Assembly (NCBI GenBank): GCA_046482545.1
Contig: JAWOEX010000024.1
Coordinates: 51,879 to 115,878, forward strand
DNA from: Candidatus Thorarchaeota archaeon
Lineage (GTDB): Archaea > Asgardarchaeota > Thorarchaeia > Thorarchaeales > Thorarchaeaceae
DNA: 64,000 nucleotides
Direction: 5' to 3'
The notes under the pieces were generated by a model. That model was not told the DNA's origin. It was given only the letters and a program-made list of their open reading frames with translations, and made no database searches. A program made the position numbers and the translations under genes. Of the stretch, positions 42,240 through 49,832 are shown in pieces; the first letter of the stretch is position 1, and the number at the start of each line of letters is the position of its first letter.

Positions 42240-43385
42240 TCAGATACAGCGGTGAATGACTTCCGGCCCAGCTTCTTCGAACTCTTTCTTGCTGACCCAC
42301 ATCTTCTGGAAGGTCTTAAGTGAAGCAAGAATGGAGCCGCCAATCCAAACTGAGTACTGTCTCTCAGGAGGAGCAATGATGCGAACCTCGAGGTTCTCAG
42401 GTAGTTGTTCAGAGACCTCCTTGTGGAGCCTCTCCTTGAGACCTGGGAACATGGTTGAACCACCAGACATTACGATGTTGGCATAGAGCTCACGTCGCAA
42501 GTCAACGTCACACTGCTTAATTGACTCGACAATGTGATCATCCATCGGGATGGTATCAAGTCCAATTGCGCTCGGATTGAAGAATAGCTCTGGCGCTTGG
42601 AACCGTTCTGCGCCTATGGTAATTGTTTCACCATCAGGCAACATGTAGGGTTTGTCTACGCCGGCCTTGTCGGCAACCTGTCTTTCCTTCTCAGGATCAA
42701 GTGCAACGTAGCATAGCTTCTCCTTGATATCCCTCACAATTTCCTTCTCCGCACCACTTACGAAGGTATAACCACGCTGTCTCAGGAGTCTCCGGAGGTA
42801 TTCAGTTATGTCACGACCTGCCAGATCGATTCGCCTGATTGCATGAGTAATAGCAAAACCCTCGTAGATAGGTACAATGTGAGTAACACCATCTCCTGAG
42901 TCAATAACAAGCCCTGTGGTTCTGCCTGATGCATACAGTGATAAGACAGCTTGTGTCGCCACGTAAACCGCAGGAACTCCAAAATTATCAAACATGACAG
43001 ATGCCATGCGCTCTCTATTCTCTCGTGGATTGAATGGTGCTTCAGTAAGCAGTACGGGATTCTCGCTGGGGTCAACCTTCAAGTCATTATAGAATGTGTA
43101 TGACCATATCTTCTCAATTGCATCCCAGTCATCAATCACACCGTGTGTAATAGGATACACCAGTCGAAGGACACCACGTAGGTTGATTGCCTCTTCACCG
43201 ATATAGTAGTCCCGAGTGTAATGGTCAACATCAGTCATTATTGACTCATACCGGGGATACCCAATCAGTGTAGGCCAAACACTACGGGGCTGGTCTTCTC
43301 CCGCGTATCCGTTCTTACTCAGGCCTGTACCGTTATCAATCACAATGGGCTTCGCGCCCAAGTACTCGTCTTCCGCCAAATTCAT
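42240..43385 (-). CDS. Asgard actin (Lokiactin-like)
   Basis: [75 protein letters not shown] and C-terminal GP.VIHRCI motifs. Confidence 0.97.
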
Positions 43386-43681
43386 CAGTCCTCTTTTTTA
43401 TTTTTGATTCGTGCTAGAACAGGATTTCCAAAACCATTTGCGAATTAACAGTTCGTAATGCCGTATTTAAGCCTTGTTTGCATGCTTTCGATAAATCGCC
43501 AATTACTTTCAATACCTATATGAACTATATATGAATGACAGGAAGAGGAAATGCACGGGTTCAAATCAACCCTCACCTTATTGTTGAAATGATATTAGAA
43601 GTGTTCTGGAGTGTGTATTCTCTGGGTATTACTGTCAGTAATATCAGCATAGCAAAGCCGTGTATCCTGAGAGGACATCAC

Positions 43682-43700
43682 AATATCATATATAGATATT
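43682..43700 (+). promoter_or_regulatory. Palindrome overlapping the TATA box of the wHTH-CARF gene
   Basis: AATATCATATATAGATATT is the perfect palindrome AATATCTATATAGATATT with one extra A; it ends 28 nt before ATG 43729. Confidence 0.45.
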
Positions 43701-43728
43701 ATATTCGTCTTACGAATTGGAGTGTCTG

Positions 43729-44511
43729 ATGTTAATAGAGTCTCCTGAAGAAATCATTCGTGAAGAGGTTTCAAGTGTCCGTGCGAGAAAAATCATTCTA
43801 GAGGAACTACAACAGGGACAGAGGACTGGTACTGAGCTCAGAGAAGCAATAAGGGAAGACTTGATTGCTCGAGAAGAAGAAAAAGGCAATGGTCAAGAAG
43901 AGGTAAAGGTAACCGATCCAAAGCTCTACTTCAATACTAAGCATCTTGAGAAGAAAGGAATAATCTCTAGTTCTAAGAAGGGGCGACAGAGGATATATCA
44001 GCTTTCTCCTAAAGCGATTCACCCAGTTCGAAGAGTTCTCAATTTCGGTAGGCCTAATCTACTCATCACATCCGTAGCAATGCCCGATGACCAACGACCT
44101 CTTGCTAAGTGGTTAAGCCGAGATAAACGAATAGATGTCAACATAGTTAGAGTGTTTGTCAGTGAGCGTCGTTTTTCCAGAGGTGTCCAGAGAAGCTTGT
44201 CGCGATTCGTGCCAAACGACTGCAAGAAAAAGTGGGAAACTAGTTGGCACGAGATACCAGACAGTCTGCTTGACAGCACCGTCGTTGAAGGTCATGGCAA
44301 TCTCAAGGGAATCTATGAGTATATGGAAAACGTGGTTCTTGAAGATATGCAGGAATATAGTCTAATTGTCGATGTCTCGATGGGGCCAGCAGTTATCGTC
44401 TTAGCTCTTTTTATGTTAGCATTTGATTATTCACTCGAAGCATTATACCTAGATAGAACAGAGAGAGGAGAATTCCGTACCTTTAAACTACTCCCGAGAG
44501 GATCGCCTTGA
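43729..44511 (+). CDS. N-terminal ArsR-like wHTH + C-terminal CARF-like (Csa3-like) domain protein
   Basis: wHTH segment KLYFNTKHLEKKGII...GRQRIYQL; Rossmann-like C-half from NLLITSVA to LIVDVSMGPAVIVLAL...ALYL. Confidence 0.65.
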   Translation: MLIESPEEIIREEVSSVRARKIILEELQQGQRTGTELREAIREDLIAREEEKGNGQEEVKVTDPKLYFNTKHLEKKGIISSSKKGRQRIYQLSPKAIHPVRRVLNFGRPNLLITSVAMPDDQRPLAKWLSRDKRIDVNIVRVFVSERRFSRGVQRSLSRFVPNDCKKKWETSWHEIPDSLLDSTVVEGHGNLKGIYEYMENVVLEDMQEYSLIVDVSMGPAVIVLALFMLAFDYSLEALYLDRTERGEFRTFKLLPRGSP

Positions 44512-45200
44512 TTTCAAACGACCCTACACATCAGCTTCGATGGATACAAATCGGTCTTGAAAGAAAGATACATGTCATCAAAGAAATTATTCGAGATAAG
44601 CGAAGAAAAACTCCTAGAAGAAACACCAGAACTCTTGAGAAGCTAAACCACTGGGAGAACTCAATAGAATATATCGAATCGAAGCTTACCGACATAGAAG
44701 GTACATTAGGGCCAAAGCTGGAGGAAGAACTGGGCATTGATTTCAAAGATAACGAGCTCCTGCAGATTGCGATGTTTCAGCCAAGTACAAAGAATATCTT
44801 CCTTGAGATTGAGACAGAATATCGCTATGATAGAAACTGCCCCTTGTCAAGACAGGATTTCGAGAATCTAGTCAACGTCCCCGAGATGGCGCAGGCCCTT
44901 GCCTTAGTAGGAGATGCTGCTATTGACATGTCGGTACTCCATCATTTGTGGGAACCTACTGCTGCGGATGTCGGAATGCTAACACAGCGCAGGGCAGATA
45001 TTGTTTCAAATGAACATCTGGCAGATGTCTGCAATAGCTGGGGGCTGTATGAATATAGAATACACTTTGATCCAAGCCATCCTAGCACAGCTGAAATGCA
45101 ACATGACAAGGGCACGTTACTGGAAGCGGTATATGGTATCATCTACGTAGAATATGGGTTTGAAGCAGTGGAGAGAGAAATAACACACATTCTCCGTTAG
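44508..45200 (+). CDS. Ribonuclease III-family protein lacking dsRBD (Mini-III-like active site)
   Basis: LEEELGIDFKDNELLQIAM, ALALVGDAAI, VSNEHLA and GTLLEAVYGIIY.EYG motifs; TTGA overlap with the upstream stop. Confidence 0.85.
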   Translation: MISNDPTHQLRWIQIGLERKIHVIKEIIRDKRRKTPRRNTRTLEKLNHWENSIEYIESKLTDIEGTLGPKLEEELGIDFKDNELLQIAMFQPSTKNIFLEIETEYRYDRNCPLSRQDFENLVNVPEMAQALALVGDAAIDMSVLHHLWEPTAADVGMLTQRRADIVSNEHLADVCNSWGLYEYRIHFDPSHPSTAEMQHDKGTLLEAVYGIIYVEYGFEAVEREITHILR

Positions 45201-45769
45201 ATGATGGAGCACCCAGATTGTTCGATTTTCGTGTTTCCTTTGCACATATTCATCTTGTCTTGACGAAGGGTAGTCACAAAACACGAAGCCATGAAGAAAG
45301 GCCAGAGGAAAGACCAAGTCTTGTTGACGGATATCGCCACTCTCTACCAACCGGACTGCATTAGCTCCCGGAGAGTTCGCGGCTGTTCACCCTGTTCAAT
45401 CGAGCTTTTCTGTCCTCGGTGGCGATATCAGGGAGATAATTATGACTGAGGCGTGGGAAAGACTGTGGGATACCTCTCTATAGCTGAAAGTGATGTTTTA
45501 GCAGAGTACACAGGAAGATGAAGCTGGGATCGTGGGGATGATTCCATTCCAAGGAACACGGACAAAGTCCATACTGACTCAGAAGCATTCGGGTGTTCTG
45601 AGGGCGGTGATATTGGCAGGATGGGTGGAACACAGAATTTTCACGCAGTTGGGTTCACTCAACTGGTTAGAAATTGATTATCCAGAAACTGTCTTTATTT
45701 GTACACTTTGAATCTTAGCATTGGAAAGGAACAGGATTATTAGGCAAATCCAAGCGAAAAATAGCTGTA

Positions 45770-47551
45770 ATGTTACCCGTATCAACTGAACTAGCGATAC
45801 TATTTATTGTTTTAGCTGTTGTACTTGTCCTGTTTGTTATTGGACGTTGGCGTTATGACATCATTGCGTTGTCCGGTTTGTTGGCACTTACAGTTACCGG
45901 CATAATTCCTCTGGACCAAGTGTTTTTGGGATTTGTTCATCCTGCAGTGGTCACGGTGGCAGCTGTATTAATTATATGTTGCGGCCTGAACAATTCGGGC
46001 GTCGTGGATATTATTGTTAGAGAGATGTCTCGGGTTGGAGATAATACACTCATTCAGCTATTGGCACTTACAGGATTAGTTATTGTGCTTTCTGCTTTCA
46101 TGAATAACATAGGTGCTCTAGCGCTCCTAATACCCGTGACAATCAGAATGGCTAGGAGGAGCGATAAATCACCATCGCTTCTTCTCATGCCGCTTGCGTT
46201 TTGTTCCATACTAGGAGGGCTGATAACGATGATTGGCACTCCTTCAAACATCATAATTGCAACATTCAGAGCCCAAAATGGCCAAGAGCCTTTCCTTATG
46301 TTTGATTTTCTTCCAGTTGGCTTGGGAGTTGCCGTAGCCGGTATGTTGTTCATGTCATTGGTTGGGTGGCGCTTAATTCCTCAGCGTGAGGGAGCGGCAG
46401 ATGCGGATTTGTCTCTGGTTGATGACTATATTACTGAGGTTCACATACCTGAAGAATCGAAAATGGTTGGAAAACGAATCTACGATTTGGAATCAGCCTC
46501 TGAGGCAGACATAGCAGTAGTGGCACTCTTACGAAAAGACGAACGTTTTAACACACCTCACAGCTTGAGGAGCTTGAAAGCGGGTGACCATCTAATAGTC
46601 AGGGGAGAAACTGAAGACCTGAAGATACTGGTTGAAGCTACTGAGCTGGAGCTTGCTGAAACCAAAAGAAGCAAAGAAGACATTCTGCAAACAGATGATG
46701 TAACTATCATTGAGGTTGTGATAGCAACTAACTCGATAATGGATGGGAAAAGTGCACGAAGATTGAACTTGCATGGCCGCTATGGGGTCAATCTGCTCGC
46801 CGTCTCTCGTCAAGGTAGACGATTAAGAGCTCAAATAGGTGACATCCGGCTGCGAATAGGAGATGTGTTATTACTTCAAGCTCCAACAGCGGAATTGAAT
46901 GAAACTCTCTCAGTCCTTGGCTGCTTGCCCTTGATTGAAAGAGAAATGAGGTTTGAAAAGCCTCATCGCACACTTCCTACTATAGGCATCTTCACAGCAG
47001 CATTGCTAGCTTCTGCTGTGGGCCTGCTACCCGTTCAGATAGCATTCGTTATGGCTGCGTTAGCCATAGTGGTCGTGGGAGTCGTTCCACCCGATGAAGC
47101 TTACAAGGCCATTGATTGGCAAGTAATTGTCCTACTGGGAGCTATGATTCCAGTCGGACATGCTTTGGAAACCACAGGAGGGTCACAGCTGATTGCCACC
47201 ATGCTTGTTCAGATAGGAGGTGCTGGTTCTCCATTTTTTGTCCTGACAATGCTACTAGTCATTGCCGTACTTCTATCATGTATCGTGCATAACGCGGGCA
47301 TAGCAATTCTTTTGGCCCCCATAGGTATGAATATTGCACTACAACTTAGTGTATCAATGGATCCGTTTCTGATGGCAGTGGCAGTTGGCTCGGCAAGCGG
47401 CTTTCTCACGCCTATTGGGCATCCCTCAGAGTTATTGGTCATGGGGCCCGGAGGCTACATGTTTGGTGATTACTTTCGAGTTGGTTTCTTATTGGAAATC
47501 ATTGTGATTATATTAACAATTATGTTGATTCCACTGTTCTGGCCCTTCTAA
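45770..47551 (+). CDS. SLC13 family permease with two TrkA-C domains
   Basis: SAFMNN, GG..T.IGTPSN, central RCK-C repeats and FLTPIGHP...VMGPGGY.FGD motif. Confidence 0.92.
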   Translation: MLPVSTELAILFIVLAVVLVLFVIGRWRYDIIALSGLLALTVTGIIPLDQVFLGFVHPAVVTVAAVLIICCGLNNSGVVDIIVREMSRVGDNTLIQLLALTGLVIVLSAFMNNIGALALLIPVTIRMARRSDKSPSLLLMPLAFCSILGGLITMIGTPSNIIIATFRAQNGQEPFLMFDFLPVGLGVAVAGMLFMSLVGWRLIPQREGAADADLSLVDDYITEVHIPEESKMVGKRIYDLESASEADIAVVALLRKDERFNTPHSLRSLKAGDHLIVRGETEDLKILVEATELELAETKRSKEDILQTDDVTIIEVVIATNSIMDGKSARRLNLHGRYGVNLLAVSRQGRRLRAQIGDIRLRIGDVLLLQAPTAELNETLSVLGCLPLIEREMRFEKPHRTLPTIGIFTAALLASAVGLLPVQIAFVMAALAIVVVGVVPPDEAYKAIDWQVIVLLGAMIPVGHALETTGGSQLIATMLVQIGGAGSPFFVLTMLLVIAVLLSCIVHNAGIAILLAPIGMNIALQLSVSMDPFLMAVAVGSASGFLTPIGHPSELLVMGPGGYMFGDYFRVGFLLEIIVIILTIMLIPLFWPF

Positions 47552-48042
47552 GGAAAGATGCTGGGCAAAATTGCAGTGCCACTCATCTCACATAGAGAGT
47601 ACATATTATATATTGAAGCTTGGCCTTCATGGCATCAAAATCACTATCTTCTGGGCAGTGCGCTTAATATACCATACGAGCCGATTCAAGATGTTTCACA
47701 AAACGGAGTCTCAGCATCTCCCAAGGGAGATTAAATCGAGCTCCCATGGTGCAAAGAGATAGGTTCGTGAAAAGGGCATTGGATTGCTTTCTGTCGTGTG
47801 AGTGGTTCACCAATGTCAAGAAGGCGAACATGGTTCTCATATTGCTATGTTATTTACGCCCATTTCTCATCACCCGATAACTTAGCGGACAAGAGGACTT
47901 CTTCCGGCATATCCGTGATTCAGATGATTTTTACAAAATCCTAACTGATACTGTCAGGAATCTTCGTTATGACCGGCCTAGTTACAGGTGTGAAGAAGGC
48001 CTGTGGATAAAGAGTATGCTTTCTAGGAGACTATTTCTGGCC

Positions 48043-48582
48043 TTATTCCAGCGCACGGTCATGTTTCACTTTCAGCCTCGCCTTCTGATACTCCAAGGTA
48101 TTATCTGTCATCATGCCTCGGCAATATCGATTTGGATTACAATAGCCCCATTGACGTAGACTCTTACATGAAGGAGATGACCTTACAGAATAGAATGGGG
48201 GGGTGAGTAGATTTGCTGCAACTAAGAAATTGACAACGGTTCTTATATTATTCTTGGTAAAGGCTAGCCTGATACAGGGTGGGGCTTTTCTGACATTTTT
48301 CCACGTTACAAGATCAAAGAGATGATACCAGAGTTTGCATTTTTTTGCCTTGTACAAAAGATTACAATTCCTGCAAAAGCCACCATGGATTGACACGTCG
48401 CATAGCTCATCTCGCGTTGTGGAGGTGAGGCCGGAGCCCTTCAATAGATGGAACTTCACCTCGATGAACCATTCAGGTGTAAAAGAACCAAACTCCTCGA
48501 TGAATGAGCCGAGCTCCTCGCCTAACTTATCGGGAGTCGTATTCCATTCTGAGCTAAGGTGGGGAATTGCATTCTTGTTCAT
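48043..48582 (-). CDS. Cys-rich protein with primase large subunit C-terminal Fe-S-like motif
   Basis: PPCI...NFL...Y...PSCKSLRQWGYCNPNRYC, plus an upstream C/H cluster. Confidence 0.55.
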   Translation of the reverse strand: MNKNAIPHLSSEWNTTPDKLGEELGSFIEEFGSFTPEWFIEVKFHLLKGSGLTSTTRDELCDVSIHGGFCRNCNLLYKAKKCKLWYHLFDLVTWKNVRKAPPCIRLAFTKNNIRTVVNFLVAANLLTPPFYSVRSSPSCKSLRQWGYCNPNRYCRGMMTDNTLEYQKARLKVKHDRALE

Positions 48583-48818: not shown

Positions 48819-49832
48819 ATGCCCCAATTGAATATTAGAGCTAAAATCCCATTCAAAGAAGTGCTTACCAACATACGAATAGCCGACTTGGATGGTAGCG
48901 GGGTAGAAACGCTTGTTATGTCAACTATGGGTGGAGACATCAGAGTAATCGAGTTTCAAAATATAGAAACTGGGCAATTTGAAGAAAGATATCGGGCGCG
49001 TGATCTTCCTCCGCACTCAGCACTAGCATTAGGCGATGTGAATGGAGATGAAAACATTGACTTCGTCATCGGAGGGTTAGACAACCAACTGAGGGTTCTA
49101 TCCATCATCGACGGGGATTTGAAAATTCATGCAGAAACACCAGTAGGAACACTGCCAACAGGCATTTGTATAACAAATCTCTCGGGAACGGTGGCAGAAG
49201 AGGTTCTTGTGGGGTCCAACGATAAAGCCCTCAGGTGTTACGGCTGGTTCGATCAATGTCTCGATAAGATTGCCCATAAAGTGGTTGACATGCCAGTCTT
49301 CTCCATAGTCCCTTTGCGGTCGGAAGGCATGTCATACAATAGATTTGTTTTTGGCGATGAATCTACCAACTTGTATGCTTACAGATACGCTGATGATAGG
49401 TTACATGAATTGGTCAGACGAAAGACCAAAGGAAGCGTCGAATTGGTGGCCACAGGGGATATTACTGGGAATGGTATTGACGAAGTCGTCTCTGTATCTG
49501 ACGGAAAGTACCTTGGTCTCTATGCTGTCGTCAAGAGAGGTTTTGACAAGTTTGATGGTCTTACTGCACCACAGGAAATAACCTCGATATACGTAGGCAA
49601 TCTCTTTCCAAACAGTGATGGGGAAGGGCATCTGGTTGTCAGTCATGCTGATTCTTTGATTGCATTATTCGAACTAGATGGGCGGAGGCTGGTTCAAAAG
49701 GGATCAGTTAAAGCTATGAGTAACGCTGTTGATTCCATGGTCAGCTGTGGGGATCTAGATGGTAATGGAAAGATTGAGATAGCTCAAGCGGTTGGGCATC
49801 ACTTGAATATTATCGAAATTGAAGAGGATTAG
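48819..49832 (+). CDS. Seven-bladed FG-GAP-type beta-propeller without signal peptide
   Basis: Seven approx. 45-aa repeats with D(L/V)(D/N)G(D/N)G loops (ADLDGSG, GDVNGDE, GDITGNG, GDLDGNG). Confidence 0.8.
   Translation: MPQLNIRAKIPFKEVLTNIRIADLDGSGVETLVMSTMGGDIRVIEFQNIETGQFEERYRARDLPPHSALALGDVNGDENIDFVIGGLDNQLRVLSIIDGDLKIHAETPVGTLPTGICITNLSGTVAEEVLVGSNDKALRCYGWFDQCLDKIAHKVVDMPVFSIVPLRSEGMSYNRFVFGDESTNLYAYRYADDRLHELVRRKTKGSVELVATGDITGNGIDEVVSVSDGKYLGLYAVVKRGFDKFDGLTAPQEITSIYVGNLFPNSDGEGHLVVSHADSLIALFELDGRRLVQKGSVKAMSNAVDSMVSCGDLDGNGKIEIAQAVGHHLNIIEIEED

Follow-up and report, generated by a model that had tools for sequence, protein, structure and literature searches.

An operon of Thorarchaeaceae that encodes a wHTH-CARF transcription factor and an RNase III-fold nuclease is more likely to control actin expression as a switch than to serve in antiviral defense, because the operon is located back-to-back with the eukaryote-like actin gene and two conserved palindromic boxes are common to both. 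The reading that we favor, with somewhat better than even confidence, is that the regulator uses one of these boxes (site A) to activate actin and the other (site B) to repress its own operon, the nuclease being a co-transcribed housekeeping enzyme. The locus was analyzed in a 64,000-nucleotide stretch of DNA (hereinafter the window) from Candidatus Thorarchaeota archaeon (assembly GCA_046482545.1, contig JAWOEX010000024.1, positions 51,879 to 115,878 of the forward strand), the genome of which is 3.05 Mb in size and 98.9% complete. Unless another locus is named, coordinates are those of the window.

Organization and conservation of the operon

The genes for the regulator (260 aa; 43729-44511, plus strand) and the nuclease (230 aa, TTG start; 44508-45200, plus strand), both identified by profile matches and predicted structures, share the start/stop signal TTGA at 44508-44511, and each start is preceded by an SD-like stretch (GGAGTG at 43719-43724 and GAGAGG at 44496-44501, respectively). 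The original prediction took this overlap for translational coupling, and the comparison of related genomes agrees that the two genes are linked and probably co-translated: the overlap is 4 nt in 19 of the 50 distinct junctions, and in the others with an identified start, no more than 17 nt separate the genes. The regulator is present in 80 and the nuclease in 81 of the 87 genomes of the class, both essentially as single-copy genes; in the set of 86 genomes compared for cas10, the regulator is present in 79. They are adjacent and in the same order in 78 of the 79 Thorarchaeaceae genomes that have both, the one exception being broken by contig ends, so that the predicted linkage holds across the family; the counts come from related genomes, which are non-independent samples. 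The pair is a core single-copy locus of Thorarchaeaceae and does not follow the pattern of defense islands.

The operon belongs to a conserved block of housekeeping genes (comB, pgsA-like, NTP transferase, sua5 and THUMP genes). The dN/dS values of the pair are 0.09-0.10 (0.10 for the nuclease against a same-genus genome), similar to those of pgsA and sua5 and indicative of purifying selection. The same block, kept across Thorarchaeaceae, encodes a stand-alone FG-GAP/BBS2-like beta-propeller protein (48819-49832, plus strand). In most relatives, a gene for an HD hydrolase of about 500 aa converges on the 3' end of the nuclease gene, often overlapping it (for example, L181:10407-11918 and L183:9170-10708); in the genome analyzed here, a gene for an SLC13/TrkA-C transporter takes its place (region 45200-48043).

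Divergent from the regulator lies the gene for a Lokiactin-type actin (381 aa; 42240-43385, minus strand), the putative target. Lokiactin is a conserved cytoskeletal protein present in all Asgard classes (PMC9834061). Each genome yields a single actin match at E<1e-100, with 88-99% identity across Thorarchaeia. In Thorarchaeaceae, at least 72 genomes show actin and the regulator in head-to-head orientation. The head-to-head arrangement was found in 10 Asgard families, in nine of which the nuclease is absent (f2, f3, f4, f5, f6, f14, f16, f28 and f29, including families with proteins named Freyarchaeia/Jordarchaeia, Hermodarchaeota and Baldrarchaeia). Elsewhere, actin and the regulator are in tandem (f17), 3.3 kb apart (f19) or unlinked (f15 and f18); the large Loki-type and Heimdall-type families have only distant paralogues or none, and Lokiarchaeia and Heimdall-type families keep actin with no adjoining regulator. 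In the tree of the regulator, sequences group by family, with Thorarchaeaceae on a single supported branch (98/99), a topology that fits vertical descent. The most parsimonious scenario is that the actin-regulator divergon is ancestral and that the nuclease entered it in a single insertion.

Two RNA features of the actin gene itself were observed. In many Thorarchaeaceae (L001-L060), the actin leader (approximately 43386-43446, minus strand, in the window) contains a short, conserved hairpin that has CAGAG/CTCTG as its core and includes an internal loop, with z-scores down to -5 in genus g12; this hairpin is weak in the genome that contains the window. Six loci (L016, L017 and L185-L188, in genomes G007, G003, G008, G009, G016 and G027) carry a 30-nt insertion near the 3' end of actin, after the TFQ codons and mostly with an in-frame stop, that is missing from the genome of the window. 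The insertion folds into a 4-bp helix with two flanking 3-nt bulges around a 9-bp hairpin; compensatory changes are present, and its excision at bulge position 2 gives back the normal C-terminus in all six cases; to judge from the sequences, it is a candidate EndA-spliced intron in an Asgard actin mRNA.

Palindromic sites in the actin-regulator spacer

The spacer between actin and the regulator is 343 bp long. The original prediction placed a near-perfect palindrome over the promoter of the operon, and such a palindrome, AATATC-N7-GATATT, is indeed present at 43682-43700. Its exact form is not conserved, the right arm reading GGTAAT in both same-genus genomes, and we rejected it as the conserved operator register; the operator-like dyad that is conserved at this place is offset, at 43685-43707. 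In the non-redundant spacers, the pattern ATATA-N7-TATAT occurs in 12 of 23, compared to 0.1 in shuffled sequences, and refinement yields a 23-bp dyad, GAYMTAYAT-N5-ATRTAKRTC, with symmetric outer G/C positions. The spacer length of this dyad is not sharply fixed (information of 16-18 bits for spacers of 5-9), being poorly resolved because the tracts are AT-rich and alternating.

A matrix trained without the genus of the window matches two positions in the spacer. Site A (43513-43535), the candidate activator site, ranks 1-2 among 3.05 million positions. It lies upstream of the actin TATA box, at a distance of about 42 bp; this box, TTAAATA (43464-43470, minus strand), is a predicted element with a conserved purine-rich BRE-like stretch in front of it, and Thorarchaeaceae loci preserve it at about 70-130 nt before the actin start. 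Site B (43685-43707), which overlaps the palindrome and covers the likely TATA element of the operon, is the candidate autorepression site; it scores 9.6 in the genome of the window and 17.2 in both same-genus genomes, and is found about 32-55 nt ahead of the regulator start codon in most Thorarchaeaceae genera. The spacer ranks first among the 618 intergenic regions of the genome, whether these are ordered by their best site or by two sites (26.0 versus 14.6). Both sites recur in the held-out genera g4, g7, g9 and g15, and where the TATA box was located in these genera, site A is 29-40 bp upstream of it, mostly 31-32 bp.

A genome-wide pattern search with one mismatch exceeded the control only modestly and revealed no clear wider regulon; among the exact matches listed, seven of eight fall in the actin-regulator spacer, partly by construction. 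The Thorarchaeaceae matrix fails to match most other classes. Separately, an inverted repeat at 43625-43645 (GGTATTAC-N5-GTAATACC, the second arm being GTAATA(T/C)C), seen in the same-genus comparison, has perfect 8-bp arms with differing spacers in two same-genus genomes and is a possible second operator.

Archaeal regulators that bind upstream of BRE/TATA activate transcription, and those that bind at or downstream of it repress (PMC4158304). By this rule, a regulator dimer, as expected from CARF biology, that binds the 23-bp dyad at both places in the spacer would most likely activate actin from site A and repress the CARF-RNase III operon from site B, over its own promoter. The level of the nuclease, which is translationally coupled behind the regulator, would therefore follow the same feedback.

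Passive linkage has to be weighed here because the housekeeping neighbors are also syntenic over long distances. The regulator could control only its own operon, with actin a passive neighbor in an old block that rearranges slowly and site A a second autoregulatory or looping site. The conservation of the comB, pgsA-like, NTP transferase, sua5 and THUMP block across Asgard classes fits such an arrangement, as do the several lineages in which actin is apart from the regulator. However, the distance from site A to the actin TATA box is fixed and helically phased: in the training set, the distances cluster at about 31, 41 and 51 bp, that is, with a 10-10.5-bp period (nominal p of about 0.0005, an overstated value given that the sequences are related), whereas the distance from site A to the regulator start varies from about 130 to more than 400 nt. 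Furthermore, genus g12 keeps site A although site B is lost; a variant site A, typically at 31 bp from the actin TATA box, was kept in seven of the 10 loci read, with a different distance in one of them. Taken together, these observations make control confined to the operon unlikely.

It is improbable, too, that the dyad is read by another factor, of a general or chromatin-type, or consists of AT-tract promoter elements, the regulator having other targets. Alternating AT runs do yield dyads at several spacer lengths, and the left half of site B may double as a TATA element. Against this interpretation, the motif is rare, with only 0.8% of the intergenic regions reaching the score of site B and none other than the actin-regulator spacer exceeding 14; the outer G/C positions are symmetric; and the motif changes in g12, the genus with a changed recognition helix (TSPKLYHN versus TDPKLYFN), albeit in a single event.

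The regulator: a CARF protein with a remodeled pocket

The structural model of the regulator (mean pLDDT 87) comprises a winged helix (residues ~6-104; ~43744-44040, plus strand) followed by a Rossmann domain (residues 107-258; ~44047-44502, plus strand). The proposed CARF identity of the C-terminal domain was borne out by structure comparison, in which CARF domains took all of the first six places. VC1899 came first (Z 15.0, rmsd 2.4, 129 residues aligned); further matches are Cdn1 and Can2 (both Z 13.3), Csm6 (Z 12.9) and Csa3 (6wxq, Z 12.1), and Foldseek also finds CARF (E 2e-5). The PADLOC-DB profile PDLC01987 (CARF_m5) matches the regulator with E 1.6e-22, covering positions 9-191 of the 195 in the profile; in view of this full-length match, the family is already catalogued. 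The Thorarchaeaceae members carry about 20 additional residues and no basic ligand residue. Named homologues of the regulator and of the nuclease are mostly from Thorarchaeota. The second match in the ESM Atlas (TM 0.62) is a cluster of 157 proteins, mostly from Bathyarchaeota, with the same wHTH-CARF layout.

The closest characterized counterparts are Csa3a and Csa3b of Sulfolobales, which consist of the same two domains. In Csa3, the CARF domain is N-terminal and the wHTH C-terminal; the regulator has the reverse order, as noted originally. Furthermore, unlike Csa3, the regulator is not linked to cas genes, and its proposed target is actin. The palindrome proposed as the activating site of Csa3a sits 12 bp upstream of BRE/TATA, a placement like that of site A; in vitro, Csa3a bound its own palindrome non-specifically (PMC8699464).

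Neither motif 1 nor motif 2 of the Csa3 pocket for cA4 is preserved. In motif 2 of Csa3, Leu-X2-Gly-h-Arg, the Arg contacts the cA4 phosphates (PMC8699464); in the regulator, the place of G-h-R is occupied by G219-P220-A221, within the ligand loop D215-V-S-M-G-P-A221 (44371-44391, plus strand), in accord with the Pro-Ala replacement pointed out earlier. Alignment of orthologues shows that an Arg or Lys is present at this position in 31 of 33 sequences from outside Thorarchaeaceae, compared to two of 51 Thorarchaeaceae sequences. Because this residue was lost in Thorarchaeaceae, binding of cyclic oligoadenylate (cOA) by the regulators of this family appears unlikely. The CARF domains of the family also contain about 20 extra residues, with an invariant Trp and Gly in the insertion. 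The pocket is thus remodeled, and the domain probably either senses a ligand other than cOA or is a mere dimerization module.

The nuclease: an RNase III domain without a dsRBD

The RNase III fold of the second protein was supported by the match to PF00636 (49.4 bits, cut-off 27), whereas the score with TIGR02191, 40.8 bits, is far under the 166-bit cut-off of that model. The structural model (pLDDT 91) consists of an N-terminal helical hairpin (residues 17-75, pLDDT >90) and an RNase III domain, and given that the chain stops directly after the catalytic domain, at residue 230, the protein lacks a dsRBD, as initially proposed. Two of the catalytic acids are kept, D136 (44913-44915, plus strand) and E206 (45123-45125, plus strand), and A132 and T203 stand for the other two. 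D136 and N168 are invariant in 70 of 70 sequences, and so are E206 and K201 in each of the 69 that extend over these positions. We consider the protein to be, probably, an active Mg-dependent dsRNase of routine RNA processing or turnover.

The original description of the protein as Mini-III-like holds in part. The absence of a dsRBD is common to the nuclease and Mini-III (MrnC, class 4 RNase III), and the reduced acidic site, with A132 and T203, presumably resembles that of Mini-III. However, canonical RNase III (Z 14.3) and the Drosha or Dicer domains match best; for canonical RNase III and Drosha, the rmsd is 2.1-2.5 over 134-151 aligned residues, with profile E-values of 2e-18 to 2e-11, and Mini-III is a weaker match (Z 10.9, profile E 0.007). 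Mini-III is made up of the RNase III domain alone, whereas the nuclease has a conserved N-terminal hairpin in addition. Mini-III also has a helix, alpha-5b, where other enzymes carry a long alpha5-alpha6 loop (PMC4357697); at this position, the model of the nuclease shows a loop with a short turn (residues 179-193), as viewed in the model and not by residue-level superposition. Thus, by the features that could be tested, namely the weaker match and the extra N-terminal domain, an assignment to Mini-III was ruled out. The two main catalytic acids align with those of class 1 bacterial RNase III (Rnc) and Drosha, but class 1 Rnc has a C-terminal dsRBD and a four-acid site, and does not have the additional N-terminal hairpin of about 60 residues. 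The Asgard rnc-Argonaute-helicase clusters, in which an RNase III with a dsRBD adjoins an Argonaute (bioRxiv 10.1101/2023.12.14.571608), share the presence of RNase III with the present locus, but no Piwi match was found in this Thorarchaeote genome and, with it, no Argonaute partner for the nuclease.

Several RNAs can be considered as substrates. The genome showed no long hairpins of the kind that would readily suggest themselves as substrates. We rejected the hypothesis that the nuclease serves mainly to mature rRNA in place of the splicing endonuclease: EndA genes are present, and the 23S precursors of Thorarchaeaceae retain the canonical bulge-helix-bulge. The 23S flanks (L124, L152, L153, L157, L158 and L160) also form a distal helix of 12-21 bp past the bulge-helix-bulge, with a conserved GGATG/CATCC core, and this helix is a possible substrate. 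Other candidates are the actin leader hairpin and the stretch that the nuclease gene shares with the convergent HD gene of most relatives. An elaboration of the actin switch, in which defense-type parts make up a two-level controller, with the re-purposed CARF protein setting transcription and the co-dosed nuclease processing structured or antisense-paired RNA of the locus, such as the actin leader hairpin, strikes us as quite improbable. Among the rRNA loci, one contig end (G000:C2:1-1487, L121) contains a short 16S match (1230 nt) after a very GC-rich sequence unlike the remainder of the genome and is possibly chimeric.

The regulator and the nuclease might also act as a complex, in which the remodeled CARF domain restrains or switches on the nuclease in response to a signal other than cOA, such as an RNA end, as is the case for RtcR. 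The genes are translationally coupled, and the ~20-residue insertion with its invariant Trp and Gly and the loss of the basic residue coincide with the gain of the nuclease. Yet, in other Asgard families, the nuclease subfamily occurs without such a regulator, nine families have the regulator without the nuclease, and the sister family f2 lost the basic residue but has no nuclease, all of which leaves a complex doubtful. A prediction for two regulator and two nuclease chains scored 0.00 and has no weight either way.

CRISPR, cyclic oligonucleotides and the case for defense

As described at the outset, the window contains no CRISPR-Cas, but this does not extend to the genome: other contigs carry a type I-D cas operon (cas10d, cas7d, cas5d and cas3d) and two CRISPR arrays with related repeats (G000:C44:1-9574, L150, and G000:C36:60-1060, L151). 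No cas1 was found in the assembly. Type I-D systems are not known to make cOA. Searches of this genome for type III cas10, and for DAC, SMODS, mCpol and Piwi, found none.

The original prediction saw in the operon a second-messenger-controlled module for defense, toxin-antitoxin or RNA processing, and one can envisage a cOA-controlled defense or toxin-antitoxin system with a nuclease that destroys viral or host dsRNA. The CARF fold is typical of antiviral effectors, and outside Thorarchaeaceae the nuclease subfamily is patchy, occurring in about 20 of 314 genomes. At several of these loci (L062, L065, L073 and L075), the nuclease adjoins Schlafen AlbA_2, DUF3800 or Cdc6 genes, and the context suggests a mobile or accessory life; the regulator was not found beside it in any of the 19 loci read. 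Within Thorarchaeaceae, however, the patchy distribution and mobile context expected of defense or type II toxin-antitoxin systems are not observed, the locus being universal, single-copy and fixed in a housekeeping block, and the older and wider partner of the regulator is the divergent actin gene. Control by cOA fares no better: it is precisely the nuclease-bearing family that has lost the cOA-contacting residue, and only 12 of 86 genomes have cas10. No relatives of the nuclease were found in viral contigs. A defense or toxin-antitoxin function of the pair is, on these grounds, very improbable.

Implications for actin regulation in Asgard archaea

The proposal that the regulator switches actin expression implies a vertically inherited housekeeping divergon. 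The actin-regulator pair would be ancestral in Asgard archaea, and in the ancestor of Thorarchaeaceae an RNase III without a dsRBD would have been inserted right behind the regulator, then fixed and translationally coupled. The parts are of known kinds, and the regulator family already has a profile; our literature search, which did not cover the source of the CARF classification, found no work on the regulation of actin genes in Asgard archaea, on a link between actin and CARF proteins, or on a CARF-RNase III operon. The locus supplies a candidate transcription factor for actin, two predicted sites at defined coordinates and a prediction of which promoter is activated and which repressed. If this reading is correct, it would place a CARF domain in a housekeeping role and make RNase III part of the core of an entire archaeal family, even though rRNA processing in that family keeps the bulge-helix-bulge signal.
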